NCBI GenBank assembly: GCA_943349945.1
Contig: CALQZS010000001.1
Coordinates: forward strand, 130,803 to 194,802
DNA: 64,000 bases
Direction of reading: 5' to 3'
Origin: Candidatus Nomurabacteria bacterium
Lineage (GTDB): Bacteria; Patescibacteriota; Minisyncoccia; Phycocordibacterales; SBAW01
Part shown: in pieces, positions 11,630-26,188 of the stretch
Numbering within the stretch: position 1 is the first letter of the stretch
How the letters are laid out: every line of letters begins with the position of its first letter
Notes under the pieces: generated by a model
What the model was told of the DNA's origin: nothing
What the model saw: the letters and a program-made list of their open reading frames with translations, nothing else
Database searches by the model: none
Position numbers and translations under genes: made by a program

Positions 11630-11659
11630 ACTAGCTTACGTTTGTTACCATTATATACT

Positions 11660-12271
11660 ATGTGGGAATCTTTTTTATCTTCCCTACTCGACTACCTAGT
11701 ACTGCCGCGCAAAACAGACCAGATCGTGCGCACACTAACACTCGACGAGCTCTACTCGTTAGTGTTGCACTCTGAAGACCAGGGGCTGTTGCCCTACCAA
11801 GACGAGCGCGTGCGCGCCTTGGTGTGGGAGCTTAAATACTATGCAAATAAACACGCCGCAGCGCTTGCCGCCCTCGTCTTGCATGAAACCCTCATAACAA
11901 TAGCCTCAGAGGAGTTGGGCAAGCCACTACTTATCCCCGTCCCCATGCACAAGGCCCGCAGGCGCGCACGAGGCCATAACCAAACAGAGGTATTGTGTGA
12001 AGCGCTGCTCGCCCATGTGGGCGAGTTTTTTGTATACGCACCAGATGTGTTGGTGCGCCATATGCATACCGAGCAACAGCAGGGGCTGCAAAAAGATAGG
12101 CGGCTCAAAAATGTTGCGGGCTCTATGCACAGCAAGCCGCAGGTCCAAGGCCGCACGTGCGTGGTCGTAGACGACGTCACAACCACCGGTGCCACGTTTG
12201 CCGAGGCCACGCGCGCACTCAAAGAGGCCGGGGCACAGCGCGTGATATGCGTTGCTTTGGCAAAATCGTGA
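11660..12271 (+). CDS. comF: ComF-family phosphoribosyltransferase-domain protein
   Basis: C-terminal PRPP-binding motif VVVDDVTTTGATF. Divergent from pilM. The ATG at 11660 is preferred to the TTG at 11642. Confidence 0.75.
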   Translation: MWESFLSSLLDYLVLPRKTDQIVRTLTLDELYSLVLHSEDQGLLPYQDERVRALVWELKYYANKHAAALAALVLHETLITIASEELGKPLLIPVPMHKARRRARGHNQTEVLCEALLAHVGEFFVYAPDVLVRHMHTEQQQGLQKDRRLKNVAGSMHSKPQVQGRTCVVVDDVTTTGATFAEATRALKEAGAQRVICVALAKS

Positions 12272-12760
12272 CTAATTGGAAACTTGGAAGTATATATTCG
12301 ACCCGTTTGGTCCTGCAGCCGCGGCAGCAAATGCGCCTGTGCCGCCGCCCGGCGTAGGCGCGGTTATAGACAGCGTCGTAGGCGTCTCTGCTTTTTCTAA
12401 ATTGGTATAGAGCGCGCACGCGCTGCCCGACACCACATACCTGTAGTGCGTTTGCGTAGCGCTACCGATACTTGGGTCTTTGGGGACTTGTGCCAACTGT
12501 GCAGCATATTGTGGATATTTGGCCGCAAGTTCGGGCACCAAGTCTGCCAAGTCATAGTTGCCTGCACCCGCAACAGGCGTATAGCACGCCCCGGTGAGTA
12601 AACGCCCCATTTGCGACACTTCTGCTTTGCGGCGTGCATCACGTGCACCCTCGCGCGCACCACCAAGCGCCACAAACACAATCGAGGCCAAGATACCGAT
12701 AATAGCGATGACTACCAACAGCTCCACTAACGTGAATCCTTTATGAGAAATACGTTGCAT
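12272..12760 (-). CDS. Type IV pilin
   Basis: The internal start at 12760 gives MQRISHKG|[22 protein letters not shown]. The 41-aa upstream extension in the track ORF is implausible. Confidence 0.85.
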
Positions 12761-12865
12761 ATACATAACTATAGCTGCAAAATAGCATCTTCGTAAGAGA
12801 AGTTTGACACACACCACCCCATAGCGGACACTGGGCCTAGATGATCTTCGAAAGGAGACTTTATT

Positions 12866-13453
12866 ATGCCCAAAGGGGTACAAACAAGCCCACGCATAGA
12901 CTGGAACGACGACATTCTTGCCCGTCTGCGCCTACTATGGAGCCAAGGCCTGAGCACCGCAAAAATTGGCCGGCGCCTGGGAGTCAGCAAAAATGCCATA
13001 ATCGGCAAAGCTAAGCGGATCGGCCTGCCCGAACGCCAATCACCCATACGCCGCAGTAGCAATAAAGGAGCGCCCCGCACCCGCCAGACAAAAGCCCCCG
13101 CAACCCTGCCGCCACTGACAAGCTTGGCGCAGCCTGTCGTGCATCCAAAGCCCGCCCCCCTTGCGACAGAGCCCGAGGCGCCAGCGCCACCAGTGCTAAC
13201 GGCGGCGGAGATAGTACACGAAAATCCGCTACCTCCTCGCCCTATGTACGTGCCGCCCATCGAAAGTACACAGGCGGCCCACACCACTGAGCAACGCAGT
13301 TGTTGTTGGCCGCTGGGCGACGTGGGCACGCGGAGTTTCCGCTTTTGTGATGCACCAATAGCGACAAGGAAGCCGTATTGCAGCACACACGCCAAAGAAG
13401 CGTATGTAAAAGCACGTGACAGACGTGAGAACGCAGACGCTTTTATACAATAA
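12866..13453 (+). CDS. gcrA: GcrA-like cell-cycle regulator family protein
   Basis: N-terminal W-x-D...[34 protein letters not shown] HTH. C-terminal CCWPLGD...FC...PYCxxH block. AGGAG RBS 7 nt upstream. Confidence 0.8.
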
Positions 13454-13478
13454 GACCCCAACGGGTCTTATTTTTTTA
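13452..13478 (+). terminator. Rho-independent terminator after gcrA
   Basis: AAGACCC-caac-GGGTCTT followed by a T7 run. Confidence 0.8.
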
Positions 13479-13484
13479 TAGAAA

Positions 13485-14027
13485 TTAAACTTTTGAAGAC
13501 AAGAAATCTTTGAGTGCGGCGAAGGGTTTTATTTGCAAATATGTTTTTTCGTACTCAGCCTCGTTCATTTGCGCACGGGTTTGTGTGCAGCCGCTTGGAA
13601 TAAATATTTTGTCCCAGCCGTATCCTCCATCCCCCATTGGGGTTTGCGCTACCTCGCCGTCCATAGCACCTTCAAAAAGTTTGAGTGTCTCGCCGTCGTA
13701 ATATCCAAACACACACTTGGCCGTCGCTTTGCGGTTTTTGTCATTAAGCATCGAACAGATACTTTCAAACGAGAGGCGCTCGATAAAGAATTTTATAAAC
13801 GGCCCGGGCAAACCGCCCAACGCCTCAAACTCGAGCGACACGTCTTCGACAATAACGGGCGTCTTAATTTTCTCATACGCCTGCCGTACCTTGTGCCCCA
13901 CAATCTCTTTTAAATCCATCGATTGCAGCTCGTCCAAGTCGAGCTTTACATGGCTCACAGGCAACCCCAAATACCGGGCCAAGTAGTCGGCCTTTTTTTG
14001 GTTACCGGTGATGAAGGTGATTTGCAT
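13485..14027 (-). CDS. rdgB: Non-canonical purine NTP pyrophosphatase (HAM1/RdgB family)
   Basis: MQITFITGNQKK...VEDVSLEFEALGGLPGPFIKF matches HAM1 signatures. Confidence 0.85.
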   Translation of the reverse strand: MQITFITGNQKKADYLARYLGLPVSHVKLDLDELQSMDLKEIVGHKVRQAYEKIKTPVIVEDVSLEFEALGGLPGPFIKFFIERLSFESICSMLNDKNRKATAKCVFGYYDGETLKLFEGAMDGEVAQTPMGDGGYGWDKIFIPSGCTQTRAQMNEAEYEKTYLQIKPFAALKDFLSSKV

Positions 14028-14036
14028 TGTGGTAAA

Positions 14037-14474
14037 TTACATCTTCCTCGAGTCATACGCCCAATGCAACAGCGCTTGCCGCTGTTTTGGGCGACAAAAA
14101 ATATCTCCAGTTCTACAATTATTTTTGATTTGCATTATATGCCTACGCATAGCGAGCCACCTTTTTATTTGCTTCTCGTCATCATCGGTCCTACGACCCA
14201 TAAAATATCTGCAGTACCACTGAAACCACCCGCGCGGGTCTTGCGGATGTATCCAGCCTTTTGCCTGCCATACCGCAAGCGACTGACTCGCGTTTATGCC
14301 AAAGTAATTCAGCTCTTTGTGCCGCTTCCCATCGGGTGATAATTTTGCACTCTTCCACCAACCTTTTGGGAACTCCTTTGGCTTGTCAGAAAAATATAAT
14401 CCACCGAACACACCAAGCTCGAGCATCTCTTTTGGCGTCAGGTCCGGCGTAAAGCGCGGGTCGAATTTCGTCAT
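14037..14474 (-). CDS. Conserved-looking hypothetical protein
   Basis: 145-aa soluble Trp-rich ORF (GWWKSAKL, RGWFQWYCRYFMGRR); family not recognised. Confidence 0.5.
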   Translation of the reverse strand: MTKFDPRFTPDLTPKEMLELGVFGGLYFSDKPKEFPKGWWKSAKLSPDGKRHKELNYFGINASQSLAVWQAKGWIHPQDPRGWFQWYCRYFMGRRTDDDEKQIKRWLAMRRHIMQIKNNCRTGDIFCRPKQRQALLHWAYDSRKM

Positions 14475-14480
14475 AGTTTG

Positions 14481-15245
14481 TTATTTCCTCGGCAATGGGA
14501 TAAATATACTTGTTTTCCTTTTGTACTCTGCAAACTCAGGGTTCCCCTCCAGTTTCTTTTCAAGCATCGGAACGCCAGACACTTTCAAGATCAAAAAAGT
14601 TATAGTCATAGGCCCAACAATACCAAGCCAGGCGCCGGGTACAGAGAGAGCGATGAGCCACAGCCCCCACCACTGCACTACCTCGCCAAAATAATTTGGA
14701 TGACGAGTGTACGCCCACAACCCGCTTTGCATCAACTTTCCCTTGTTCTCTGGATTTTTAATAAACCGCGCAAGTTGTGCATCGCCCAAAGCTTCAAAAT
14801 AAAAACCAACAAGCCACACAGCTACGCCTAGAAAATCGAGCAGCACAAGACTCGGCCCAGCATTTTTGTTGATAAGCAGTACCGGCGAAACAATGAGGAA
14901 CAAAAACAGGCCTTGCAAAAGATACACTTGAAAATACGAACGGATATAAAACCACTTGCCCCATTCTTTCCTCCAAGCTAGATAGCGATAGTCCTCTGCT
15001 TTGCCTTTGTTGCGTCTGTGTATGTGCCACGCTAAACGCAAACCCCAAATACTTACCAACACTCCTACCAACATCCCTCGTATACCAGAATCACCGGAAA
15101 GAAAAAAGGATGCCCCTGTCATCAGTACAAACCCGAGCCCCCACGCCACATCGGCCACATCGTTTCTTTTCCTAATCAAAGAAACCACGAACCATAGGCT
15201 CATGTACACAAGCAGTATGGCGATAAGAGTTACAAAATAACTCAT
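14481..15245 (-). CDS. DUF1295 / steroid 5-alpha-reductase-like membrane protein
   Basis: Motifs ADVAWGLGF, YRYLAWRKEWG and GLWAYTRHPNYFGE. The start at 15245 (MSYFV) overlaps the upstream stop by 4 nt. Confidence 0.75.
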   Translation of the reverse strand: MSYFVTLIAILLVYMSLWFVVSLIRKRNDVADVAWGLGFVLMTGASFFLSGDSGIRGMLVGVLVSIWGLRLAWHIHRRNKGKAEDYRYLAWRKEWGKWFYIRSYFQVYLLQGLFLFLIVSPVLLINKNAGPSLVLLDFLGVAVWLVGFYFEALGDAQLARFIKNPENKGKLMQSGLWAYTRHPNYFGEVVQWWGLWLIALSVPGAWLGIVGPMTITFLILKVSGVPMLEKKLEGNPEFAEYKRKTSIFIPLPRK

Positions 15246-15640
15246 AAACCGATCTTGGTTGCGATGAAGTAGGTTACCGCAGAAACAGACGCCGCGAGCA
15301 CTGCACCCCACACTAAGTCAACGATGGTTACAAGAAGCGGCCAATCTTTGGTGACGGCAAGGTTAGTAAGGTCGTACGTTGCATAACAAACCAAACCAAA
15401 TAGCGCACCGAACAAAAGTGCGTGCGTCCATGAATTCTTCTCTATGGCCGGCATAATTACAAAAACCACAAGACCGACAACAAACAAAAGATAAAAGATA
15501 ATAGCCGCCGTCCAGTTTACATCTGGCTTTAGGAGCGGACCGATTTGTTTAGCGTAAAAACCCTTTGCAACGAGTCCAAGCCACACCATGTCGATGGCAA
15601 AGAAAACAGGGAGTGCTATTGCATAGAGTTTTATGAACAT
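15242..15640 (-). CDS. DUF2177-like small membrane protein
   Basis: 132 aa with four predicted TM segments, and AIDMVWLG and YATYDLTN motifs. Confidence 0.6.
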   Translation of the reverse strand: MFIKLYAIALPVFFAIDMVWLGLVAKGFYAKQIGPLLKPDVNWTAAIIFYLLFVVGLVVFVIMPAIEKNSWTHALLFGALFGLVCYATYDLTNLAVTKDWPLLVTIVDLVWGAVLAASVSAVTYFIATKIGL

Positions 15641-15651
15641 AAAAGATAGGA

Positions 15652-16302
15652 TTAATTAATAATTTCCACCAACACTTCATTGCGATACATCCACGGTGGA
15701 GTCCATGGTGCGCTGTATCCAGCGTATGCAGTGCTTCCCTTTGTCGCCACTCCATCACGGGCAAGTGCCGAAGCTAATTTTTCTTGCATGTCTTTTACCC
15801 GCGTATCCGAGCGATACCCCGAGAATTGCAGTACTGCATATTTCTTGGTAGGGATCATCACGATTTTCACTCTCGGATCATTTGGTGTCGGTAATGTTTC
15901 AAGGGTGTACGAGCGGGGCATACCAAAAGATATTATTTGCGAGTCACCATCAGTCGTCGCTACTACCGGTGCAGTCATAGCAATATTTTCTGATGTTTTT
16001 TCGCCTCCTACTTTTTGCGCGATGACTGGAACGGTCATCGCTATACTTTCTTTTTTTGTATTTCCGCCAAAGATATACCCAGCAACAATTCTAAAACCAT
16101 TATTCATAGATTCTCCATAAGAACCCTTTACCGTAGTCTGCGCTACGATATGTGCCGGATATTCTCGTATTTCATATCCATCTTTTATCTCAATGACAGT
16201 ATAGTCAGCTTGCTCAACACGCGAACCAAAAAATCCTGAGATAGACCAAAGCACCACAATAACAAGCAAAGCGATAAGTATAGTGCTCATATTTTTATTC
16301 AT
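15652..16302 (-). CDS. SOUL heme-binding family protein with N-terminal anchor
   Basis: YEIREYPAHIVAQT...FRIVAGYIFGGN...IAMTVPV...IAMTAPV pattern typical of SOUL/HBP. Confidence 0.75.
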   Translation of the reverse strand: MNKNMSTILIALLVIVVLWSISGFFGSRVEQADYTVIEIKDGYEIREYPAHIVAQTTVKGSYGESMNNGFRIVAGYIFGGNTKKESIAMTVPVIAQKVGGEKTSENIAMTAPVVATTDGDSQIISFGMPRSYTLETLPTPNDPRVKIVMIPTKKYAVLQFSGYRSDTRVKDMQEKLASALARDGVATKGSTAYAGYSAPWTPPWMYRNEVLVEIIN

Positions 16303-16393
16303 ATAGCTTTAGTATATAATAGTATATACTAAACTATAATAATATTAGTTTAGTATATGCATTAACAATATTTAATCAATTTAAAATAAATAT

Positions 16394-16795
16394 ATGCAAA
16401 ATATCGTAGAAACAGCTGTCGCAGCAGGATCATTTAAAACACTGGTCACTGCAGTGCAAGCGGCAGGATTAGTAGACACTCTATCTGGTGCAGGTCCCTT
16501 CACTGTATTTGCTCCAACTGATGAGGCTTTCGCCAAAATTCCAAAAGAGACTCTCGACGCAGTCCTTGCGGATAAAGCAAAGCTAACATCTATACTTACG
16601 TACCATGTGGTGGCAGGAAAAGTAATGGCTTCTGATGTAATGGGCCTGACTTCTGCAAAGACAGTACAAGGTGATGAAGTTAAAATAGAAACTGCAGATG
16701 GAGTTATGGTAAACGACGCCAAAGTAGTACAAACAGACATAGAATGCACAAACGGAGTAATCCATGTCATCGATTCAGTCTTGATGCCAAAATAA
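16394..16795 (+). CDS. Fasciclin (FAS1) domain protein
   Basis: Motifs [17 protein letters not shown] and [13 protein letters not shown]. Confidence 0.9.
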
Positions 16796-16813
16796 ATACA
16801 TCCGAAATAAAAA

Positions 16814-16850
16814 TAAAAAACTCTAACTTTTGTTAGAGTTTTTTATTTTT
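16814..16850. terminator. Bidirectional terminator between the convergent fasciclin and PCD genes
   Basis: A-run, then CTCTAAC-tttt-GTTAGAG, then a T-run. Confidence 0.8.
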
Positions 16851-16855
16851 ATTGA

Positions 16856-17245
16856 TTAGGCGTCTATTTTTGCCGCAAGAATAAAATCATTTTGAGAGAG
16901 TCCGTTAATTGCATGGGTGGACAGCGTGAGCTCTACAAATTTGTAGTTTTTCAGATATATGTCCGGATGATGCCCCTCTGATTCAGCCAAAACGCCAACC
17001 TTATTTACAAAAACAAGAGCTTCATTGAAGTCCTTAAAACTATATCGCTTGGCGATACTTTTAGCATCAAGCGAAATATCCCAGCCGGGAATTTGCTTGC
17101 ATAATATATCTGCCTCTATCTTTGAAAAAGGAATGACACCACCATCGCATGCCATGCATTTTTGTTGAGTCAGTGGCGAGTTAGTTTTAGGAGTAGGGGC
17201 CTGACTCTGTATAGTTGTATGTTCCATATGCTTGTAGTATAGCAA
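16856..17245 (-). CDS. Pterin-4-alpha-carbinolamine dehydratase (PCD/DCoH) with N-terminal extension
   Basis: The C-terminal ESEGHHPDIYLKNYKFVELTLSTH is the PCD signature. Confidence 0.8.
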   Translation of the reverse strand: MLYYKHMEHTTIQSQAPTPKTNSPLTQQKCMACDGGVIPFSKIEADILCKQIPGWDISLDAKSIAKRYSFKDFNEALVFVNKVGVLAESEGHHPDIYLKNYKFVELTLSTHAINGLSQNDFILAAKIDA

Positions 17246-17268
17246 AATTAAGAATGGCTACAAATTTT

Positions 17269-18939
17269 TTATTTCGTATCAATATGATTCCACGCAAAAC
17301 CCTTGTCTCCATACACTTTTTTACCTGGGTTTAAAATAGCAAGCGGGTCAAAAATATCTTTTGTCTTTTCAAAGAGACGTACGATCTCAGGGGTAAACAT
17401 CTGCGAAAGGTACGAGGTACGTAAAAGTCCGTCATTATGTTCTCCAGACATAGAACCTCCATACTGAAATACGAGAGTATAGACTTCATCCATGAGTGTA
17501 TGGAGAGTCTCAACTATTCCTTCTTTATGAATGTCAATAAGCGGAATAATATGAAAGTTTGCATCTCCCATATGTCCGGCCACAGTATAAATAAGATCAT
17601 ATTTCGAAAAAATAATTTCAAGTTTGGGAAGAAACTCCGGGAGATCTTTTGTGTGTACGACAATATCATCAATTGTGGGTGCCGTTCGATACCCTCGCAA
17701 CTTCTGGCGAAGCAGGTTGAAGCTTTCGCGCCTGAATGTCCAATACTTTTTTGCTTCTTGTTCCGAGTGCGTCAATGTAATAGGAAATCCGAATACCTTC
17801 ATCTCGTTATATGCTGACTGTACCTGCTCTGCAACTTCTTCTTCAGTATCCCCTGCAAATTCTGCCATGAGAATTATCTTTGGAACTCCGCCAGTGATTG
17901 CCATCCAAAACTCAGGCAAAAATTGGAACCCGAGCGTCAACATAGTACCCCCCATGCTTTTTGCAATTGAACCAAAGAATTTAATCGCTATTTTAAACGT
18001 ATGATCATCATAAGATTCGATGGTTTCAGGTGTATGTTTTAAAAGTCTTGGAATTATTTCTCCTAGTTGCGTTGTGGCTGGCAAAAACATAACGAGCATT
18101 CTGGAATGTTTTTTGGGGACAATTCCACTCAATGTCGCTTCAGTCACACAGGCAAGGGTTCCCTGACTGCCCACAACGAGCTTTGATAGGTCAAATACTC
18201 CTGATTCTTTATCGTAGACATTCCAAAGATAGTACCCTGAAGAATTTTTTGTTACTGTCGGTTTTGCTTGTTGCAGTACATCATAGTTGTCCTTTACAAG
18301 GGCAAATATCTCTCGATGAATGCGCCCGCTTTCAGTTTGTTCTTCGCATTTTGCGATAAGTTTCTCTGCATGAAGTGGTTCTAGAACATCTTCTTCTCCA
18401 TTTGCAAATACAACACGAAGCGAGCGAACATACTTTTCCGTCTTTCCATAGGTAAGTGTCTTTTCACCTCCTGAGTTATTAGAGACAATACCTCCAATCG
18501 CAGCCAAATCACGAGACGCCGGATAGCTTGGCAAAAGCCAGCCGTGCGCAAGAGTCTTTTTCTCAAAATCACTATAGTATACCCCCGGCTCTGTTATGGC
18601 TTCTGTGTCGGTGACAGAAAATACATGATTCATGTATCTCATTGTGTCTACGACGATGGATTCCGAAAGTGGGCCACCGGTCATACAGGTACCGGCGGCA
18701 CGCATGGTGAGGGATAACGGTACACCCTGATCTATATCTTTAGTTTTTTTTGCATGCACATAAGCAACAAGTTTTGCAATGTCTTCTTTACTTTTTGGGT
18801 AGACAACAATGCGGGGTTTTACATAAAAAAGGCTTGTGTCTCGCGCAGCTTTTTCTCGATCACTGTCTAAGATAGAAATATCTCCTTTGATTATTGTACG
18901 CAAATCACCAGCGACATCCGTATAAAAAATTTCATTCAT
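17269..18939 (-). CDS. FAD-linked oxidase (GlcD-like FAD-binding dehydrogenase)
   Basis: 556 aa with an N-terminal FAD-binding PCMH-type region (RAAGTCMTGG, IVSNNSGGEK). Confidence 0.75.
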   Translation of the reverse strand: MNEIFYTDVAGDLRTIIKGDISILDSDREKAARDTSLFYVKPRIVVYPKSKEDIAKLVAYVHAKKTKDIDQGVPLSLTMRAAGTCMTGGPLSESIVVDTMRYMNHVFSVTDTEAITEPGVYYSDFEKKTLAHGWLLPSYPASRDLAAIGGIVSNNSGGEKTLTYGKTEKYVRSLRVVFANGEEDVLEPLHAEKLIAKCEEQTESGRIHREIFALVKDNYDVLQQAKPTVTKNSSGYYLWNVYDKESGVFDLSKLVVGSQGTLACVTEATLSGIVPKKHSRMLVMFLPATTQLGEIIPRLLKHTPETIESYDDHTFKIAIKFFGSIAKSMGGTMLTLGFQFLPEFWMAITGGVPKIILMAEFAGDTEEEVAEQVQSAYNEMKVFGFPITLTHSEQEAKKYWTFRRESFNLLRQKLRGYRTAPTIDDIVVHTKDLPEFLPKLEIIFSKYDLIYTVAGHMGDANFHIIPLIDIHKEGIVETLHTLMDEVYTLVFQYGGSMSGEHNDGLLRTSYLSQMFTPEIVRLFEKTKDIFDPLAILNPGKKVYGDKGFAWNHIDTK

Positions 18940-18972
18940 ACATTTATTATAACATTATCGGACTCATTTTAC

Positions 18973-19445
18973 TTAGCGTTTGCTTCGAGTTTTTCTTCGC
19001 TGTATATACCAGTACACATAGAGAGAAAGTAGAAGGATTATATTCGGAATAAATATGATTGGTTGACCCCAGGATATTCCATTGATATGGAAGTCTGAAA
19101 TCGGCCACAAAAAAGGCGTTGGGAAAAAGGCAAAATCGTGTGTAGGTATATCAACTAAAATATGAAGTGGCCACGCGAGCGTAAGCTTGGCAAAATGCTT
19201 TTTGCCAAGAATAACGCATAAACGACCAAGCTATGAGTAATACCATAGACGGTGAAGACGTACGGCGGAATCGTTTCTAAGCTTGGCCGACCCATTGCGC
19301 CACCAGAAACTAGATTTATTATAAAAAGAGGCGCGAACGCCAAGAGGTCTGGCCCTATACCAAAGAGAAATGCAGTCACATAATCCCGCCTGCGCATGCG
19401 ACCAAATGCAACACCTCCATATAATCCGTGAGAGATAATGTCCAT
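18973..19445 (-). pseudogene. Membrane-bound metal-dependent hydrolase (DUF457/YdjM-like) split by a 1-nt frameshift
   Basis: The track ORF 19155..19445 stops at 19155. An adjacent frame continues open as ...KKHFAKLTLAWPLHILVDIPTHDFAFFPTPFLWP... to a stop at 18973-18975. The frames join at a homopolymer (T5 on plus, 19199-19203). Confidence 0.65.
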
Positions 19446-19473
19446 ACATTTATTATACTATTTGTATGTGAAA

Positions 19474-20934
19474 TTATTTTTTAGACAGATACTCCTTTGC
19501 AATTTTTAAATAATTTTCTTTTTTCTTTTTTTCCATCTTATCAAAAAGTCTCGGCATCATCGATAGTCGATGATTACTTGTGAAAAAGTCACGGTGACTA
19601 GCTATGAAATTCCAATACAGTGCAGTCCACTTCTCTTCCCAATCGCCACCAGTATAATCTGACATTTTTTTAATGTAATTGCTACCCGAGATATATGGTT
19701 TGGTAGCAAAAATACCACCATCAGCGAACTGACTCATCCCATATACATTTGGTACCATTACCCAATCATACGCATCAACATACATTGCCATAAACCATTG
19801 ATACACATAATCGGGATTAACCTGAGAAAGCAACATAAAGTTACCGATAACCATCAATCGTTCGATATGATGATTGTATCCATAGTGCAGAGCTTTCTTG
19901 ATAGCGCTGTCGACCGGAGCAATACCAGTATCTCCAGTCCAAAATCCTATTGGCAAGTTGCGGGAATGTTTCCAAAAATTCTTCGTGCGCATGACGGCAC
20001 CATCACACTCATAGGAAGCGCGCATAAACTCACGCCACCCAATGATCTGTCGTACAAAACCTTCGAGTGAATTTATAGGTATAGCGTGAGTATCTGCATA
20101 TACTATTGCACTATCGATTACCTGCCTTGGGTCGAGCAATCCAATATTTATGAGAGCTGACAATGTAGAATGAAAAAGCCGTACGCTTTTCGTAGAAAGC
20201 GCGTCCTCATACACACCAAAATCTGCAAAGCGGTCTTCTAAAAATACCTGCAAAAATTTTTTGGCATCCTTGTGTGTATATGGTAGCCAGCAGGCTATCT
20301 CTCCATATTTTTCAGCTTGTATTGTATCGAGCCACTTCTTCATTTTTGATACATCAAAATCATTTTCAAAAACAGTATCCTTGGGGAGAGTTGTATCTCG
20401 AGCAAGTTTTTTTCGATTGTCTGCATCAAAGCTCCACGCTCCCCATCTGGGCTTTCCATGTCCGTCCATCAAGATACCCAAGTCCACTCGAATTTTCTTG
20501 TAGAACATCGCCATATTTTTCTTTGAGCTTTTGTATCTTGCTATTGATTCCTCCTTTGGCAAAATAAAAAGTGGTGACTCATACCAAACCCGCTTTATCT
20601 TGGAAGCTGTTATAGCCCGCTCCAAATAGAAGTCAGTAGTATCGACAATATGAAGTTCTTGTATCCCTTCTTTTTTTAAATAATCAAAAATATCTTTCGT
20701 CTTCGGATACTGTTCAATCGTCAGGCATTTTACTTTGTACCCCTCTTTTTTCAAAAGCTCTGCATATGCGCCCATACTTAATTTGTGCAAAATTAGCTTT
20801 TGATAATGAATGGGGTTGTGCGACAGAATCAAGGGCTCTTCAATCAAAAAAATAATCCGTGCTTTTTGTATAGCCGGTGATTTTATAAAAAGTTGATGAG
20901 GATAGACCAATGTTGCTTCTTTCATAGTATTCAT
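19474..20934 (-). CDS. Cryptochrome/photolyase-family protein (photolyase-related, COG3046-like)
   Basis: 486 aa with an N-terminal LVYPHQLF start and a C-terminal W/Y-rich FAD-binding-like region. Confidence 0.7.
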   Translation of the reverse strand: MNTMKEATLVYPHQLFIKSPAIQKARIIFLIEEPLILSHNPIHYQKLILHKLSMGAYAELLKKEGYKVKCLTIEQYPKTKDIFDYLKKEGIQELHIVDTTDFYLERAITASKIKRVWYESPLFILPKEESIARYKSSKKNMAMFYKKIRVDLGILMDGHGKPRWGAWSFDADNRKKLARDTTLPKDTVFENDFDVSKMKKWLDTIQAEKYGEIACWLPYTHKDAKKFLQVFLEDRFADFGVYEDALSTKSVRLFHSTLSALINIGLLDPRQVIDSAIVYADTHAIPINSLEGFVRQIIGWREFMRASYECDGAVMRTKNFWKHSRNLPIGFWTGDTGIAPVDSAIKKALHYGYNHHIERLMVIGNFMLLSQVNPDYVYQWFMAMYVDAYDWVMVPNVYGMSQFADGGIFATKPYISGSNYIKKMSDYTGGDWEEKWTALYWNFIASHRDFFTSNHRLSMMPRLFDKMEKKKKENYLKIAKEYLSKK

Positions 20935-20937
20935 CTA

Positions 20938-21204
20938 TCAGGTTGATAGTATTAAAATCAAAATAGCGAAGTATACGATCAGATAAAAACGATAGAAATT
21001 AATCACCCGCAACTCTGCACTCTTCGTGCGCTGATGAAAGCCAAAAAGCACTTTGATCTCCTCCCAAAAAACGGGCTTTACATTAATCCACCAGCTATCA
21101 GTTTGATAGACCATCTTCCTAAATCGACTGCGAAACAATCCCAAAGGAAAACTCCAGATAAAAAACGCAACGATGGCAATCGTGTGTATGGTTATAGTAT
21201 CCAT
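20938..21204 (-). CDS. Hypothetical small membrane protein
   Basis: 88 aa with two hydrophobic segments. Its stop lies 3 nt upstream of the photolyase-like gene's start. Confidence 0.45.
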   Translation of the reverse strand: MDTITIHTIAIVAFFIWSFPLGLFRSRFRKMVYQTDSWWINVKPVFWEEIKVLFGFHQRTKSAELRVINFYRFYLIVYFAILILILST

Positions 21205-21325
21205 TTATGCCTCTTCAGTCCTTACTTCTATTATAAACTTTATTCTCTCAAGAGCTACCATTCCCTCCCCCTCCTTTTTGCGAACCTCGACCTTCAGGGG
21301 CAAAAGATACTTTGGCCATAAATTT

Positions 21326-22225
21326 TTACTCCACCGGACAGGTGTTTTTGCCCATCGCGGCGTAGAACCCACACCAGCTAAATATTGCTTCAAAGAATGC
21401 AAGGCCGGAGAAGAAGATGAGGATGGGGCTCCAGGTGGTGGTGATGGCCCATAGGAGCAATGCAATGCCAATGGCGAGGCGGACGAGTCGGTCGGACTTG
21501 CCGATATTTTTAGCAACTCCACGCACAGAGTTTTTAGCAACCTTTTTCAAAATCGCGCGGTAGACGAAGCCCACGATGAACGCAAGAATATATATAATGA
21601 CAATCAGTCCCCACCCAAAGGGCGAGAGGATAAAGCCGATTGGCGATTCGTTAAAAAAATCCTTTTTAATCTGCGGGATGAGCGTGAGTGCGTTTAAGCC
21701 TTCTTTGCCGTCAAACTTCTCTATCTCACCGATGGCGAGCGAGTACTTGCTGTCGTTGTTGGGGCTTGTCACACGGATCTCGTAGATGCCTACATCAGCA
21801 CGCGCTTTATACTCTGGTCCTTGCCAGTAGGTGTCGTAGCCAAATGGTTCAAAAAACTGTTTCCATGCAAATGTCGCGCCATCGAGCACGGCGATTTGCT
21901 TGCCGTCTTTTAGTACCACAGCGGAGACATCTTTCTTTTGCCCTGCAATGTCTGGCACCAAGACTCCGACATACAGATTAAACGCTTGCTTCGCATCTAT
22001 AGTATATACATCCGGCTCGCCCATGAGCTTGCCATAATATGCTTTGGAAACTTCGGGGTCAGTAACTGATGTAAGTCTATCCTCTGTAATTCGAGGCTGA
22101 TGTGCGGAAGCCAAGCTCGGAGTCAACGTAAATATAGAGACAAACAACGCAAGCAGCGTGAGTGATAGTAGTTTGGAATTTATGTTATATCCGAAAACGT
22201 TCAAGATGCACCTAGTATACAGCAC
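21326..22225 (-). CDS. Secreted/membrane protein with a C-terminal DUF2892 (YgaP-like) domain
   Basis: Signal peptide, an extracytoplasmic domain, TM segments, and a C-terminal ...RLAIGIALLLWAI...WCGFYAAMGKNTCP. Confidence 0.6.
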   Translation of the reverse strand: MLYTRCILNVFGYNINSKLLSLTLLALFVSIFTLTPSLASAHQPRITEDRLTSVTDPEVSKAYYGKLMGEPDVYTIDAKQAFNLYVGVLVPDIAGQKKDVSAVVLKDGKQIAVLDGATFAWKQFFEPFGYDTYWQGPEYKARADVGIYEIRVTSPNNDSKYSLAIGEIEKFDGKEGLNALTLIPQIKKDFFNESPIGFILSPFGWGLIVIIYILAFIVGFVYRAILKKVAKNSVRGVAKNIGKSDRLVRLAIGIALLLWAITTTWSPILIFFSGLAFFEAIFSWCGFYAAMGKNTCPVE

Positions 22226-22230
22226 CTAGT

Positions 22231-22599
22231 CTAGAAGTAAGGGATGAGTAAACTAAGTCCCTTCCCCATCAGAAAGCTGTATATCAGCAACCCAATGAAC
22301 GGTAGAGGCACCAGCCATAAAAACCATCTTGGATGGTCAGGTTTTTTTGAAAAAACCATGTACCAATTCAACGCAAATATAAGAGGTGTACAAATTGACA
22401 AGAGAGCACTTGTACCAAAACCGAGCAGTCCAAACACTTCCCCACTACTCCATACGAAAGAGTCGTCCTGCACAATAAACAAAAAGGCTACGCTCGACCA
22501 AACAACAGCTATTAGAAACACCTTTACTAAAAGCGCTTCGTAAATTCCAATAGCAGCCAAAACTATTTTTACAGGCGTGTTGATGGTGAATCTATGCAT
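22231..22599 (-). CDS. Hypothetical polytopic membrane protein
   Basis: The start at 22599 (MHRFTINTPVKIV...) was chosen because the longer track ORF would overlap a tRNA. Confidence 0.5.
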   Translation of the reverse strand: MHRFTINTPVKIVLAAIGIYEALLVKVFLIAVVWSSVAFLFIVQDDSFVWSSGEVFGLLGFGTSALLSICTPLIFALNWYMVFSKKPDHPRWFLWLVPLPFIGLLIYSFLMGKGLSLLIPYF

Positions 22600-22627
22600 G
22601 TAGGTAATTATATACCCATAACCGTTG

Positions 22628-22714
22628 CGGAGAGAGCGAGATTCGAACTCGCGGGCCCAATTAAGGGCCGACAGTTTAGTAAACTGTTGATTTAAACCAC
22701 TCATCCATCTCTCC
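22628..22714 (-). tRNA. Type II tRNA-Ser; anticodon reads ACU by hand folding
   Basis: Fold: GGAGAGA-TG-GAT-GAGTGGTTTAA-ATC-A-ACAGT-TTACTAA-ACTGT-C-GGCCC-TTAATT-GGGCC-C-GCGAG-TTCGAAT-CTCGC-TCTCTCC-G. It has a long variable arm and a G73 discriminator. Confidence 0.8.
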
Positions 22715-22926
22715 ATATATTCGCACTGCTCAAATGGAGCTGCTCGGCGCAGATCGATGGAATCGTGGTCGGCACATGGTGCCGGCTTGAGAAGAAGCAG
22801 TTCTTCTCTTCGCCCATCTCATCCATCTCTCCTTGCCCTTGAGGATACTACAGTATATAGAGGAGCTCAATTAAAGCCTTTTTGAGCGTGTAAAGTAGCC
22901 CCTATTATGGTACTGTGGCGTGTATT

Positions 22927-23011
22927 GGAGACGTGTCAGAGTGGTCGAATGTGCCTCCTTGCTAAGGAGGTAGGGCGCAAGCCCTCGTGGGTTCGAATCC
23001 CACCGTCTCCG
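22927..23011 (+). tRNA. tRNA-Ser (GCU)
   Basis: Acceptor GGAGACG...CGTCTCC, anticodon arm CCTCC-TTGCTAA-GGAGG, long variable arm, T arm GTGGG-TTCGAAT-CCCAC. Confidence 0.9.
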
Positions 23012-23298
23012 CAAAGCTAAATTTTGATATATTCTCCTATCTAAATTTTGCTTATGTGTGAACGGGAGAGGGATTCGAAGGACGGAAGAAAAGCTCTGGG
23101 AGAGCTTTTCTGAGTCGGGGTCGCGAGATTTTTCAGCAGAAAAATACTTGTGACCGAATCCCACTGTCCACAAATACTACGCGGCGTAGAATTGAGTCGA
23201 AGCCGAATCGTTTTAATCGTCTCCGCTTAGTTTTTTGTAGTGTTCTACTGTAGAGCATTTTATGTGGTATAAACAAGCCATATCATTAATTTTTTAAT

Positions 23299-23931
23299 AT
23301 GTCTCGACAAACGATATTAATATTAGTCCTTATTGTTTTGGTGGTTGGCGTAAGCGGGTATTGGTATTTTAGTCACCAAAGCAAGGTTACCGACGTACCT
23401 ACAGAGGTGGTTGCAACGACAAATACTACCCATGTAGAAGAAGTAAAGGTGGAAAATAATCGAAAAAGTGCCGTAACGTCTAATGGTTTGGAATTTGACC
23501 CGGCTAAGGTACAGCCCGGGGAAAAATTCGGTGCGTTTACAGTTATTGCTTCGAGCGCTTATACGATTGGCGATGAACACTCTTACTCAGTAAGTTTCAA
23601 AGGACCTGTAAATATCCAGGGTGTATTAAACAATTTTGAGCCTAGTATGTGTGGTGCAGTACTGGAGATTTCTACATCAACTTCCGAAACCTTGCCTAGA
23701 GTGAGCGGTGAAAAGGTGGGGAGCATGAATGTATACCTTGACCTAGATGGTTTGCCAGAGGCAGAGCGTGTTACTTATACGAGCGCCGGTTTTACAACCC
23801 CTTCCGGGCAACTACTCCAAGAGGGTGATGTGTTAGAAGTAACTGTTGATACGTTTTTGGCTTCGCACCAAGGGAAAGATTGTAGCGGCAAGAGGATACA
23901 GGTCACCTCATTTAAGAAGCTTTCTATCTAA
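23299..23931 (+). CDS. Hypothetical membrane-anchored extracytoplasmic protein
   Basis: N-terminal TM segment (ILILVLIVLVVGVSGYWYF); no motif recognised. Confidence 0.55.
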   Translation: MSRQTILILVLIVLVVGVSGYWYFSHQSKVTDVPTEVVATTNTTHVEEVKVENNRKSAVTSNGLEFDPAKVQPGEKFGAFTVIASSAYTIGDEHSYSVSFKGPVNIQGVLNNFEPSMCGAVLEISTSTSETLPRVSGEKVGSMNVYLDLDGLPEAERVTYTSAGFTTPSGQLLQEGDVLEVTVDTFLASHQGKDCSGKRIQVTSFKKLSI

Positions 23932-24075
23932 CTGCGCAGCAAAATAGAAAACTTCGCCTCAGTACATATTTGTGACCGAGTCTCACTCTCTCTCCGCCAT
24001 ACATATACAACTTTTTTAAGAGTTGATATCCGCATTGACAATATCAACTAAACAGTATAAACTGTTGACATTCAT

Positions 24076-25257
24076 ATGAGCAACATCAATAGACCAAAAA
24101 TAGGTCGCTACGTAGCCCAAAAAGAGGGGTTCAAATCCTTCACCCCTTATGACTTTCCACCCAAGGAAGGCTTTGTTATTAGTCCTAAATTGTATAAAAA
24201 ACTTGAGGATGCGATTCGACTAGTCGGCAAGCTTGACGGTATCACTCGCCTGCTACCCGACAAAGACTTCTTTCTTCTTATGTTCATCAAAAAGGACGCC
24301 GCCTATTCAAGTCAAATAGAAGGCACCAAAGCTACCCTACAGGATGCCGTGGCGGCACCAGTTACAGAAGAAAAATCACGTCGACATCCTGATGTAGATG
24401 ACATAGTCCATTATGTTGAGGCCGTAAACTATGGCATCAAACGAAGCGAGACACTCCCTATTTCTCTGCGGTTAGTACGAGAGATACACGAGAAGTTAAT
24501 GACAGGTGCACGCGCCACACAACATGCCTATCCTGGCGAATTTAGACGTTCCCAAAATTGGATTGGGGGTAAAATTCCTCAAGATGCCTCCTTTGTGCCA
24601 CCTGCGCCGCACGATATGGACAAATCACTGGATGATTTGGAAAAATTCATCCATGCAAAAGATGATTACCCCTCACTTATAAAAGCGGGTCTTTTGCATG
24701 CCCAATTCGAAACAATTCACCCATTTACAGACGGCAACGGACGTACAGGACGCATGCTTATTGCTATGTACATGCACCACACAAAACTTCTTGAATTACC
24801 TATATTGTATCTATCTAGTTACTTCAAAAAGTATCAAAAACTCTACTACCAAAAGCTTCAGAATTACCATGAGGAAGATTCCGATATAGAAGGTTGGCTA
24901 GAGTTCTTTCTTGAAGGTGTTGCTGAAATTGCTGAATCTTCAATCGAAACCTGTACTAATATCACAGCCCTTCGAGACCGAGACTTTGCGAAAATGCAAA
25001 AACTTGGCAAACAGTCTGCTGAATCAACACTCGAAGTGGTGCGCAAACTCTTCAGCCAACCAATAGTCGGGGTTGCAGAAATAATAAATTGGACTGGGTT
25101 TAGCCCACAAGGGGCGTACAACATGATTGAGCGACTTAAAGCTCTAGGAATTCTAGAGCCTCTTGGTGATGCAGAATATGGACAAAAATACATCTATGCA
25201 GACTACTACAGGCTCTTTGATGATACTTTTAATACAACAAAAGTAAGCAAAAAATAG
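24076..25257 (+). CDS. fic: Fic family AMPylase, class II (N-terminal inhibitory helix)
   Basis: Active-site HPFTDGNGRTGR and an N-terminal SSQIEG that fits the (S/T)xxxE(G/N) inhibitory motif; C-terminal wHTH-like tail. Confidence 0.9.
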   Translation: MSNINRPKIGRYVAQKEGFKSFTPYDFPPKEGFVISPKLYKKLEDAIRLVGKLDGITRLLPDKDFFLLMFIKKDAAYSSQIEGTKATLQDAVAAPVTEEKSRRHPDVDDIVHYVEAVNYGIKRSETLPISLRLVREIHEKLMTGARATQHAYPGEFRRSQNWIGGKIPQDASFVPPAPHDMDKSLDDLEKFIHAKDDYPSLIKAGLLHAQFETIHPFTDGNGRTGRMLIAMYMHHTKLLELPILYLSSYFKKYQKLYYQKLQNYHEEDSDIEGWLEFFLEGVAEIAESSIETCTNITALRDRDFAKMQKLGKQSAESTLEVVRKLFSQPIVGVAEIINWTGFSPQGAYNMIERLKALGILEPLGDAEYGQKYIYADYYRLFDDTFNTTKVSKK

Positions 25258-25258
25258 T

Positions 25259-25828
25259 ATGAAAAAACTCATCCTCGCTTCTACATCACCCCGACGCAAG
25301 GAGGTGCTCGAGAAAACAGGCCTATCGTTTGAGATTGTGCCAAGCGACTACGAAGAAGACATGACCCTCGACATGCCGCCCGAGGAGTTGGCCGAGTATC
25401 TTTCGGCTGGCAAGGCGCGGGCCGTTGCGGCCAAAAACCCAGGAGCCGTAGTTATTGCGGCCGACACCTTTGTAGTGCACGAGCATCATCGCCTGGGCAA
25501 GCCACACACCAACGAGCGCGCAAAAGAGATGCTAGAGATGCTCAGCGGCAAAGCACACTATATAGTAACCGGTGTGACTATTGTCGCTGGCGACCAAGTG
25601 TGCTCCTTCCACGAAAAGACTTCGGTGCACATGGCAGAGTTGTCGGAAGCGTTAATAGAGCAATATATAGCCACCGGCGAGCCACTCGACAAAGCTGGCG
25701 CCTATGCGCTGCAAGAGCTGGGCGCTATGCTTATAGAAAAAACAGAGGGTGACTTTTTTAATGCCATGGGCCTGCCGCTCCGCCGGCTTGTGCACGAGCT
25801 CCGGGCCTTTGGGGTGGAGGTTTTGTAA
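25259..25828 (+). CDS. maf: Maf-like nucleoside triphosphate pyrophosphatase
   Basis: The N-terminus LILASTSPRRKEVL and GAYALQELG are Maf signatures. Confidence 0.9.
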   Translation: MKKLILASTSPRRKEVLEKTGLSFEIVPSDYEEDMTLDMPPEELAEYLSAGKARAVAAKNPGAVVIAADTFVVHEHHRLGKPHTNERAKEMLEMLSGKAHYIVTGVTIVAGDQVCSFHEKTSVHMAELSEALIEQYIATGEPLDKAGAYALQELGAMLIEKTEGDFFNAMGLPLRRLVHELRAFGVEVL

Positions 25829-25927
25829 GACAGAACATAACCTCTTGCGGTACTTATAATGCATGGTACTGTATCGCCAGTAGCCGTGCGTATTCCATTA
25901 CCCACAAAAGTTGGAGAGGAACGATCC

Positions 25928-26149
25928 ATGAACAGCGCGCACATCTCCGGCTCGCAACACACTCCTACGACAGTAGGCGGGGGCACGCTCCACGACATCG
26001 CCGAGGACACGGTCTCATCTACCAACGACCCTTCCTTATTTCCTCGGTCTGTAACAGGCTCCACCTTCACCTGCGACCATGGAAATTGCGGGTGCATGGT
26101 GCAAATCGTGTTCAGGACGGTCACCCGAAACAACCCCTTCGACAACTGA
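25928..26149 (+). CDS. Hypothetical 73-aa protein
   Basis: GGAGAGG RBS 7-8 nt upstream of the ATG at 25928. The ORF ends just before the terminator at 26155-26187. C-terminal CDHGNCGC. Confidence 0.35.
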   Translation: MNSAHISGSQHTPTTVGGGTLHDIAEDTVSSTNDPSLFPRSVTGSTFTCDHGNCGCMVQIVFRTVTRNNPFDN

Positions 26150-26154
26150 CCCAC

Positions 26155-26187
26155 CGCCGGCCCACAAGCCGGCGTTTCTTTTTTTGT
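26155..26187 (+). terminator. Rho-independent terminator
   Basis: CGCCGGC-ccacaa-GCCGGCG followed by TTTCTTTTTTT. Confidence 0.8.
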
Positions 26188-26188
26188 A

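Follow-up and report, generated by a model that had tools for sequence, protein, structure and literature searches.

A composite flexible region at a tRNA-Ser pair of a Patescibacteria chromosome, probably remodelled by cassette exchange

The 64,000-nt stretch of DNA analysed in this study (from contig CALQZS010000001.1; hereafter the window, in whose coordinates all positions are given) contains an AT-rich trough at 13480-25258, with a G+C content of 0.425 compared with 0.527 in the remaining window. This trough is probably a composite flexible region at a pair of tRNA-Ser genes, in which a recurrent tRNA-adjacent gene cluster would have been remodelled by cassette exchange, and to which two further cassettes, carrying the gene h210 and a Fic gene, would have been added. 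The composition of the region, its synteny, its mosaic identity to other genomes, its adjacency to tRNA genes and the presence of a recombinase in relatives were observed directly and support this reading. The original prediction had described the trough as a single foreign island with sharp edges. The atypical composition, the accessory content and the absence of most of the region from the same site in two relatives (L024 and L026) agree with that description, but the left 2.2 kb are native, the tRNA pair is core, and the remainder is pieced together from at least five segments exchanged separately.

Composition, edges and host

The step in G+C on which that prediction was based is abrupt. 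All seven of its hand counts of 60-nt lines were exact (18, 24, 21 and 24 inside; 32, 39 and 41 outside), and a two-change-point maximum-likelihood fit to the whole window placed breakpoints at 13440 and 25280, close to the claimed 13.48 kb and 25258, with a gain of 205 nats over a single composition. In 1-kb windows the maximum inside the trough was 0.478, compared with a mean of 0.527 (sd 0.029) outside. As proposed, the left edge lies at the terminator of gcrA, a hairpin at 13449-13472 followed by a T-run, and the right edge at a 1-nt junction between the Fic stop codon (25257) and the start of maf (25259). The left edge appears sharper than it really is because gcrA itself is rich in G+C (0.587, above background). 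The gene names given previously were all recovered by Pfam (Table 1), both tRNA-Ser genes were borne out by ARAGORN and Rfam, and the gene described as a broken hydrolase proved to be a frameshifted ydjM-like gene.

Within the trough, G+C is 0.465 from HAM1 to DUF2177 (13480-15640), 0.398 from SOUL to h88 (15641-21325), 0.457 in YgaP and h122 (21326-22626), 0.489 in the tRNA module, 0.426 in the h210 cassette and 0.418 in the Fic cassette. Among 50 genes outside the trough, G+C at third codon positions (GC3) has a mean of 0.583 and an sd of 0.080. HAM1 (0.58), hyp145 (0.54), DUF1295 (0.49), DUF2177 (0.48) and YgaP (0.56) lie within 1.3 sd of this mean, and the genes for SOUL, fasciclin, pterin-4a-carbinolamine dehydratase (PCD), the FAD oxidase, photolyase, h210 and Fic have GC3 values of 0.31-0.40 (z -2.3 to -3.4, or -2.5 to -3.4 without h210; Mann-Whitney P = 3e-6). 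The base-composition-normalised tetranucleotide profile gives z = 0.0 at 12.5-15.5 kb and z of -5 to -8.6 at 15.5-25 kb. By codon and k-mer criteria the foreign-looking part therefore starts at the DUF2177/SOUL junction (15641-15651), where synteny breaks as well, DUF2177 adjoining tRNA-Ser(GCU) in L024, and not at 13.48 kb. The compositionally foreign part is thus ~15.65-25.26 kb, and 13.48-15.64 kb does not deviate. Tetranucleotide scores and codon usage, which had been suggested as checks on the island, bear it out from ~15.6 kb and for SOUL through photolyase, h210 and Fic, but not for the left end, HAM1-DUF2177 or YgaP.

Judged by its protein homologs, the host is a member of the Patescibacteria (Paceibacteria, Adlerbacteria-like) with a chromosome of ~53% G+C. 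The homologs of a YkuD-peptidase S11 fusion protein encoded beside the trough are from Patescibacteria, Paceibacterota and Parcubacteria, and the island proteins share 90%-identity clusters with proteins of Ca. Paceibacterota and Ca. Adlerbacteria. An alphaproteobacterial host, which the GcrA-family gene had suggested, was rejected, the named homologs of the YkuD-S11 and island proteins being Patescibacteria instead.

Synteny, mosaic identity and the tRNA-Ser site

The synteny set was found through orthologs of the YkuD-S11 fusion, those of the closest relatives being 76-79% identical to that of the window. The gene order of L024 (Table 1) indicates that the neighbourhood of maf ancestrally included the framework from HAM1 to DUF2177 as well as the tRNA pair; window positions 15652-22620 and 23166-25257, gcrA and DUF1295 are all missing there. 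Conservation of the block in all relatives, which would have made it ancestral, was not found, as L024 and L026, two of the three closest relatives, lack most of the region at this site. As to the question whether gcrA and maf become neighbours, they are never adjacent in the relatives examined, because gcrA itself is missing there. The tRNA-Ser pair, which had been counted as island content, is kept in L023, L024 and L026, in each of which maf (83-87% amino acid (aa) identity) lies beside it; the pair is therefore core and not cargo. Each lineage carries different cargo here, which makes the site a hot spot. More distant YkuD-S11 orthologs (L027-L030, 56-57% identity) have no common gene order with the window. 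Within the species the region is fixed, as contigs from other samples match the window across both edges at 99.99% over 5652-19602 (L033) and 99.8% over 19136-35828 (L001), and it is therefore not an assembly artefact.

Compared with four relatives, nucleotide (nt) identity jumps at gene boundaries, between levels of 66-82% and 92-98%. The closest relative is L023 at 14.6-15.5 kb (94-96% nt), L032 at 15.8-16.9 kb (88-94%), L119 at 16855-18956 (98.3%, with L031 at 92.5%), L032 again at 18.9-21.2 kb (93-97%) and L023 again at 22.1-23.2 kb (88-95%); YgaP is 66-81% identical to any relative. Core genes in the same comparisons are at 70-82%, with HAM1 at 73% to L119. The location of these steps at gene boundaries indicates that cassettes were exchanged. 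One step, from L032-like to L031/L119-like DNA, lies at 16855-16861, inside an inverted repeat with 54-nt arms, and the FAD oxidase and PCD genes that follow stand at 98.3% and 92.5% compared with 73-82% for neighbouring genes. DUF1295, missing in L024, is ~95% identical to L023 in nucleotides and 94% in amino acids. Clusters at 90% identity have 17 members for Fic, 23 for SOUL, 31 for the FAD oxidase and 69 for the photolyase, against 1 for GcrA, 3 for maf and 3 for YkuD-S11 in the flanking core.

Four further genomes (L119, L031, L037 and L032) were found through homologs of the FAD oxidase and photolyase, and carry the cluster in a recurrent order: YgaP-like, h88 and photolyase, optional ydjM/tspO/flavodoxin, FAD oxidase and PCD, fasciclin/SOUL, DUF2177/DUF1295 and hyp145 (Table 1). 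The AT-rich trough is seen again in L031, L037 and L119, where the core flanks are at 50-62% GC. In L037, GC3 is 0.77-0.87 in the core and 0.51-0.64 in the cluster. The flanks stand at 0.50-0.53 and the cluster at 0.35-0.46 in L031, and at ~0.50 and 0.32-0.47, respectively, in L119. L032 is low in GC3 throughout (0.27-0.51), and the window copies of SOUL, fasciclin, photolyase and h88 have about the same GC3 as their L032 orthologs. Since the cluster is collinear from tRNA-Ser(ACU) to HAM1 in the more distant L119, the locus is old and its content in flux. No description of the cluster in Patescibacteria was found in the literature searched, which is not proof of absence, and a paper on freshwater candidate phyla radiation bacteria (PMC9166423) mentions neither photolyases nor the cluster.

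In all five genomes in which the YgaP end of the cluster is visible (the window, L023, L031, L037 and L119), this end follows closely on a tRNA 3' end, separated from it by small cassettes at most; YgaP stands directly after the tRNA, or after a recombinase and a helix-turn-helix (HTH) gene, h122 or other small cassettes. In the window the cluster begins at 22599, directly downstream of tRNA-Ser(ACU), whose 3' end is at 22627. A large serine recombinase with an HTH gene occupies the tRNA junction in L031 and L119, the two recombinases being 58% identical. L023 and L024 have the tRNA-Ser(ACU) gene without any difference, and L119 has it at 96.7% identity, followed by the serine recombinase; compared with the other genomes, L024 has the tRNA module in inverted orientation.

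Cassette borders are marked by a 20-nt promoter/start motif, AATGTTATAATAAATGTATG, laid out as a -10 box, six bases and ATG, which stands before the FAD oxidase and before ydjM in the window and had 0 matches in 100 shuffles. The single copy in L119 precedes the FAD oxidase, and the ydjM cassette is precisely missing there between the positions of the two window copies; in L032 the motif precedes ydjM and tspO. Cassette boundaries thus coincide with short promoter/start sequences that are shared. The motif may serve both co-regulation and recombination, defining a regulon and acting as a recombination junction. A shared promoter/leaderless-start motif, TATAATAAATGTATG, is also present at 2952-2966 and 3477-3491 of L032 and at 9989-10003 of L119, and precedes different cassette genes (ydjM, FAD oxidase, tspO) across genomes.

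On the other side of the tRNA pair, degenerate tRNA-3'-like repeats at 23144-23168 and 23966-23999 bracket h210, which is missing in L026 and L024 and replaced by an unrelated 206-aa gene in L023. The first repeat belongs to a 155-nt element, 92-96% identical in L023 and L026 as against 70-82% for coding genes, which has two perfect hairpins and tRNA-3'-end-like fragments at ~23060-23085 (minus strand) and 23144-23168 (plus strand) and could be a recombination scar or a small RNA. In the L023 element the plus-strand fragment, situated after tRNA-Ser(GCU), repeats 19 nt of the tRNA-Ser(ACU) 3' end exactly. Searches for tRNA 3' ends, exact or with 3 mismatches, found only the tRNAs themselves. 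For Fic, a metagenome scan returned ~65 contigs with proteins 70-87% identical in amino acids, in hosts of 28-56% G+C, none of them with any other window gene. What is conserved extends from 55-65 nt before the ATG to the stop codon, so that promoter and gene together form the cassette. Nine of the 57 Fic loci with enough upstream sequence have a tRNA gene, of varying identity, on the same strand no more than 800 nt upstream.

Proposed history and competing explanations

The direction and mechanism of transfer can be inferred as follows. The cluster (14.0-22.6 kb) would have entered as, or would descend from, a tRNA-targeted integrative island, the recombinase of which would have been lost in the window lineage. 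Later remodelling would have proceeded cassette by cassette, through recombination with homologous clusters of other, mostly lower-GC Patescibacteria; recent replacement of 15.65-21.3 kb would explain the donor-like GC3 of 0.31-0.38 there, with the older HAM1-DUF2177 part and YgaP looking native. Across the tRNA pair, the two small cassettes, h210 and a SoFic-type Fic, would have been accreted at tRNA-3'-end-like scars.

Several points weigh against this history. There is no distal att repeat at the hyp145 end in any of the window, L031, L037 or L119, so that integration is read from the architecture only, and the missing repeat is compatible with a serine recombinase. In the window itself, as the original prediction had noted for integrases, there is no integrase or recombinase by Pfam and no recombinase remnant by tblastn. 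The collinear order from tRNA-Ser(ACU) to HAM1 in L119 and L024 means that the locus may be partly inherited vertically. The identity steps, which are steps in nucleotide identity and not in synonymous sites or gene trees, could stem in part from different constraint on each gene, but constraint hardly accounts for a rise from 73% to 98% between the same two genomes. The relatives are metagenome contigs of uncertain phylogenetic distance, and two of the cluster members bear the names Polynucleobacter and Arenimonas, which may stem from mis-binning. The enrichment of tRNAs at Fic loci has a rough binomial P of 5e-6, which assumes 45 tRNAs per 0.8 Mb. As regards function, the FAD oxidase and PCD are the weakest fit and may be ordinary metabolism riding along rather than photoprotection.

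Part of this evidence could also be accommodated by an ancestral, vertically inherited locus, lost by relatives, whose low G+C reflects a local mutational or selective AT bias. The gene order shared with L119 and in part with L024 would fit, as would the AT-richness of the cluster relative to its host in every genome with visible core flanks. Such a locus is nevertheless unlikely, as the FAD oxidase and PCD are 98.3% identical in the same genome pair in which HAM1 is at 73%, and the identity steps fall at gene boundaries against four relatives. The cluster is also found in unrelated contexts beside different tRNAs (Gln in L031, Ser-GGA in L037) and with recombinases in two genomes, its proteins have 17-69 near-identical relatives compared with 1-3 for core proteins, and the GC3 of the window copies equals that of the low-GC L032 copies. 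A single recent insertion of one 11.8-kb foreign island between gcrA and maf would account for the two-breakpoint fit (13440/25280), the accessory content and the lack of an integrase, yet it is improbable to a still greater degree: the left 2.2 kb are native by GC3 and k-mers, with HAM1, hyp145 and DUF2177 syntenic in L024, the enclosed tRNA-Ser pair is core, the GC3 of YgaP is native, the closest relative differs for each segment, and Fic occurs alone in ~65 other contexts.

It is very improbable that the region is the remnant of a prophage, plasmid or conjugative element, despite its atypical composition, the adjoining tRNAs and a Fic of a type frequent on mobile elements. No structural, replication or transfer genes were found by Pfam, the GcrA protein, the only query used against them, had no match in 50,697 phage records, 9.6 kb of the DNA had none in 72,556 plasmids, and Fic had none in IMG/VR. 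That same-species metagenome contigs often break at ~14.1-14.4, 19.1-19.6, 21.2 and 22.5-22.7 kb might point to an assembly chimera or to mis-binning with DNA of a low-GC organism, but this can hardly be believed, since independent overlapping assemblies (L033, L001, L004, L019 and L034-36) reproduce the edges and interior at 99.8-99.99%.

A composite region remodelled at a tRNA pair is of a known kind, tRNA-linked flexible genomic islands being known also in Patescibacteria; islands have been reported from groundwater members, with transfer mostly within the phylum (PMC12455944). The region resembles tRNA-associated integrative islands, including these, in its atypical composition, its position downstream of a tRNA 3' end, its patchy presence in close relatives, the recombinase at the tRNA-proximal end in two related genomes and donors within the phylum. 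Unlike them, the window copy has neither a recombinase nor a clear att pair, and its content has been renewed piecemeal at gene boundaries. Furthermore, the recombinase of L031 and L119 is a large serine recombinase whereas the usual islands have a tyrosine integrase, and the window carries a predicted light-damage cluster whereas the Patescibacteria islands so far described carry restriction or translation genes. The features that set this region apart are its cargo, a serine recombinase present in relatives and lost from the window, renewal gene by gene from lower-GC relatives, and an AT-rich signature that persists in hosts of 50-62% G+C.

More tentatively, a self-contained photoprotection island might circulate in the Patescibacteria, placed at tRNA 3' ends by the serine recombinase, with cassettes swapped at promoter/start repeats and the low-GC signature kept in hosts of 40-62% G+C; this is conceivable, if somewhat doubtful. 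If true, such an island would be an adaptive, non-defence mobile element enabling ultra-small, metabolically minimal bacteria to live in sunlit oxic water. The genomes of Patescibacteria are tiny, and how some of them manage to live in oxygenated, sunlit water is poorly understood. In the region studied, a coherent set of genes predicted to act against light and oxidative damage behaves as a module that hosts differing widely in G+C share and exchange at their tRNA genes. The recombinase/tRNA pair, the Fe-S-less (6-4) photolyase with its fixed small partner and the highly conserved SoFic-like gene are testable objects. For genome scans more generally, a clean two-breakpoint G+C step may conceal native genes, core tRNAs and several independent acquisitions.

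Predicted functions and further features

Functions can likewise only be inferred from similarity and gene context, but the cluster most probably protects the cell from damage driven by light: it would repair 6-4 photoproducts, handle tetrapyrrole photosensitisers and modify membrane lipids. By Pfam, the photolyase co-occurs in the window with SOUL, fasciclin, DUF2177 and DUF1295, as in photo-oxidative gene sets. Singlet oxygen jointly induces the SOUL, fasciclin, DUF2177, DUF1295 and MsrA/methionine sulfoxide reductase families in Chlamydomonas (PMC4067076), genes for SOUL, photolyase, DUF2177 and DUF1295 are repeatedly found beside heliorhodopsin genes, Patescibacteria included (bioRxiv 10.1101/2021.02.16.431466), and the core singlet-oxygen regulon of Rhodobacter consists of a photolyase and genes of unknown function (PMC3546557). 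With the sigmaE-ChrR regulon of Rhodobacter sphaeroides (PMC3546557) and the SAK1-dependent set of Chlamydomonas (PMC4067076) the window shares the photolyase, SOUL, fasciclin, DUF2177 and DUF1295 families, joined by MsrA/MsrB in the L032 version. Unlike these sets, it lacks a ChrR-type anti-sigma factor, a cyclopropane-fatty-acid synthase and DUF1365; it has a photolyase of the prokaryotic 6-4 type, a non-photosynthetic, ultra-small host and a shared 20-nt promoter/start motif. There is no ChrR-like gene in the island, and a pair of genes for an extracytoplasmic function (ECF) sigma factor and a DUF5667 protein at 29986-31637 is core, being syntenic in relatives.

The photolyase aligns to residues 44-470 of PhrB (4DJA/5KCM ~2e-77; 3ZXS 7e-72), and shares the DPRP N-terminal domain and FAD domain of the prokaryotic (6-4) photolyases (PhrB of Agrobacterium, CryB of Rhodobacter). 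PhrB carries Fe-S cysteines, whereas the window protein is without all four 4Fe-4S cysteines, C350 of PhrB being replaced by Pro and the C438/C441/C454 stretch lying in a 10-residue deletion, as in the Fe-S-less subgroup M, e.g., PromaPL of Prochlorococcus (PMC9178010). The label 'FeS-BCP' was ruled out for this protein by the missing cysteines.

The Fic protein is probably an abortive-infection AMPylase. It matches the PADLOC SoFic profile end to end (positions 5-359 of 361), and its catalytic motif, HPFTDGNGRTGR (HxFx(D/E)GNGRxxR type), and inhibitory motif, SSQIEG ((S/T)xxxE(G/N) type), are both intact. With the anti-phage Fic of Shewanella oneidensis (SoFic) it has in common this full-length match, the arrangement Fic_N, Fic and C-terminal domain, the intact catalytic and intramolecular inhibitory motifs, and a single gene with its own promoter (TTGACA-17-TAAACT at 24035-24063). 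It differs in being only distantly similar to solved SoFic chains in the PDB (~1e-27, about 98-110 bits), in falling far below the NCBIfam SoFic equivalog threshold (144.5 bits vs a cut-off of 550), and in its unusually high conservation across hosts. The E. coli Sofic has a downstream antitoxin, AS1 (PMC12249575); downstream of the window gene there is no small antitoxin gene, maf starting 1 nt after the stop codon.

Table 1. Features of the trough and its right flank, and gene orders of the loci compared (aa and nt, amino acid and nucleotide identity).
Feature	Position	Strand	Evidence and remarks
gcrA terminator hairpin	13449-13481	+	Inverted repeat, terminator-like site 13449-13472 and T-run; left trough edge
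HAM1/RdgB-type XTP/dITP pyrophosphatase, core flank	13485-14027	-	Pfam Ham1p_like 2e-34; GC3 0.58, z = 0.0; orthologs near cluster in L024 (81% aa) and L119 (79% aa)
hyp145, conserved last cluster gene	14037-14474	-	Homologs after DUF1295 or DUF2177 in L024, L031, L032, L037, L119; 66-88% aa where scored; L037 copy by blastn alone, 78% nt
DUF1295 membrane protein (steroid-reductase/ICMT/PEMT-like)	14481-15245	-	Pfam 3.9e-76
DUF2177 membrane protein, last gene with native k-mer signature	15242-15640	-	Pfam 5.5e-48
SOUL heme/tetrapyrrole-binding protein, first strongly AT-biased gene	15652-16302	-	Pfam 1.1e-47; GC3 0.36, z = -2.8; 90% aa to L032 and L119, with identical 11-nt spacing to DUF2177
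Fasciclin-domain protein, divergent from SOUL	16394-16795	+	Pfam 1.9e-43; GC3 0.31; 92-96% aa to L032, L119
Inverted repeat with 54-nt arms (bidirectional terminator)	16774-16885		Cassette breakpoint
PCD	16856-17227	-	Pfam 2e-27, NCBIfam 4.7e-28; always after FAD oxidase (L031, L119)
FAD-linked oxidase (GlcD/D-2-hydroxyacid dehydrogenase-like)	17269-18939	-	Pfam and NCBIfam
20-nt promoter/start motif, copy 1	18937-18956	-	Before FAD oxidase
ydjM-like membrane hydrolase pseudogene (frameshift)	18979-19445	-	163-aa protein of L032 aligns in two frames (residues 1-81 at 19445-19203, 71-162 at 19254-18979)
20-nt promoter/start motif, copy 2	19443-19462	-	Before ydjM
Prokaryotic (6-4) photolyase family protein (DPRP), Fe-S-less subtype	19474-20934	-	Pfam DPRP PF04244 1.3e-37; 93.6% aa to L032
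h88, small protein always upstream of photolyase	20938-21204	-	99% aa to L032, 90% to L037; remnant in L119
YgaP-like_TM (formerly DUF2892) membrane protein	21326-22225	-	Pfam 1.2e-15, C-terminal part only; GC3 0.56; 66-78% aa to L023, L031, L037, L119
h122, four-helix membrane protein	22231-22599	-	Translation; 96.7% aa to L023; occupies place of recombinase and HTH in relatives
tRNA-Ser(ACU), 3' end facing cluster	22627-22714	-	ARAGORN; Rfam 55.8 bits
Exact 15-nt duplicate of tRNA-Ser(ACU) 5' end	22818-22832	-	E 0.004; also in L023, L024
tRNA-Ser(GCU)	22927-23012	+	ARAGORN, Rfam; pair kept in L023, L024, L026
Conserved 155-nt element	23013-23170	+	92-96% in L023, L026
h210, membrane-anchored protein, small cassette	23299-23931	+	Direct repeats 23144-23168 / 23966-23990, 84%
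Degenerate copy of tRNA-Ser(ACU) 3' end (att-like scar)	23966-23999	+	Second of the repeats that bracket h210
SoFic-like Fic AMPylase cassette, promoter and ORF (24076-25257)	24012-25257	+	PADLOC SoFic 5.3e-107
maf, core right flank outside trough	25259-25828	+	Pfam 8.1e-61; GC3 0.63
L024, in window orientation			PilM - phosphoribosyltransferase - pilin - GlmS - methyltransferase - HAM1 - 162 aa - hyp145 homolog - DUF2177 - tRNA-Ser(GCU) - tRNA-Ser(ACU) - maf - YkuD-S11
L026			tRNA pair and 155-nt element, 26 nt, maf; without h210 and Fic
L023			DUF1295 - DUF2177 - TspO - YgaP - h122 - histidine phosphatase - (SLFN-type helicase/GIY-YIG/S24 and MazG-like) - tRNA pair - 206 aa - maf
L119 (Ca. 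Adlerbacteria, GCA_026397405.1, 495-kb contig)			GroEL / tRNA-Ser(GGA) tRNA-Ser(ACU) / large serine recombinase - HTH - YgaP - (h88 remnant) - different Fic - FAD oxidase - PCD - DAO-like - fasciclin - DUF378 - SOUL - DUF2177 - DUF1295 - hyp145 / ... HAM1
L031			tRNA-Gln(CUG), overlapping end of serine recombinase - HTH - YgaP - methylase - GmrSD - TspO - FAD oxidase - PCD - ... - CPD photolyase - DPRP - DAO-like - fasciclin - DUF2177 - DUF1295 - NmrA - hyp145
L037			tRNA-Ser(GGA) - YgaP - h88 - photolyase - TspO - flavodoxin - DUF2177 - DUF1295 - hyp145
L032			MsrB - MsrA - h88 - photolyase - ydjM - TspO ... flavodoxin - fasciclin - SOUL - DUF2177 - DUF1295 ... hyp145

The tight spacing of the minus-strand genes suggests four operons, SOUL-DUF2177-DUF1295-hyp145-HAM1, FAD oxidase-PCD, h88-photolyase and h122-YgaP. 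A longer ORF of 161 aa (22231-22716) was rejected for h122, as it overlaps tRNA-Ser(ACU) and the 122-aa form matches L023. The YgaP-like protein has a His directly after the predicted signal peptide (..ASA|HQPRITEDR..) and Cys residues in its C-terminal membrane helices, which may hint at metal binding. Its single-sequence AlphaFold model (pLDDT 46) was too poor for a structure search, as was the single-sequence AF2 model of hyp145 (pLDDT 53), a protein with no Pfam, NCBIfam or PADLOC match.

The tRNA-Ser(ACU) combines a canonical 7-nt loop (UUACUAA) with a long variable arm; the gene is present in L026 too, and always stands beside another tRNA-Ser (GCU or GGA). Serine tRNAs with A34 are unusual for bacteria. 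About one third of the AGY codons in core genes are AGT (39/121). Rfam found nothing in the island beyond the two tRNAs, sub-threshold matches being the terminator hairpin or antisense tRNA. At the corresponding site of L023, a 2.4-kb cassette (13279-15667 in locus coordinates) lies directly after tRNA-Ser(ACU) and encodes a MazG-like protein and a 667-aa SLFN-type helicase/GIY-YIG/S24 protein. It is bracketed by an exact 23-nt repeat of the tRNA-Ser(ACU) 3' end, opposite in orientation to the 19-nt copy in the 155-nt element, and has no integrase; it is a candidate defence cassette with clean att-like ends.

The GcrA-family gene to the left of the trough (12866-13453, plus strand, Pfam 5e-27) may itself have been acquired from another phylum. 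A scan of GTDB genomes with GcrA returned only distant alphaproteobacterial genes (29-57% identity), without synteny information, and the protein forms a cluster of its own at 90% identity; in L024 a methyltransferase and GlmS take its syntenic place. Upstream of gcrA (~12272-12883) strains vary, the pilin-like gene differing between L019/L020 and L021/L022 (151 aa without a Pfam match vs 164 aa with N_methyl).

Outside the trough, low GC3 is also seen in genes for an IS200-like Y1 transposase (47623-48321, minus strand, 0.33), a guanylate kinase (50364-50966, minus strand, 0.38) and a UDP-glucose dehydrogenase-like protein (46676-47539, minus strand, 0.44), and small low-GC imports thus seem to have occurred elsewhere in the window as well. 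A tRNA-Ile(UAU) gene lies at 36531-36603 (minus strand), and a dip in G+C at 41-42 kb is due to a one-piece tmRNA (41653-42031, plus strand) with the tag AKNSVSPYFAANDFQFAFARA.

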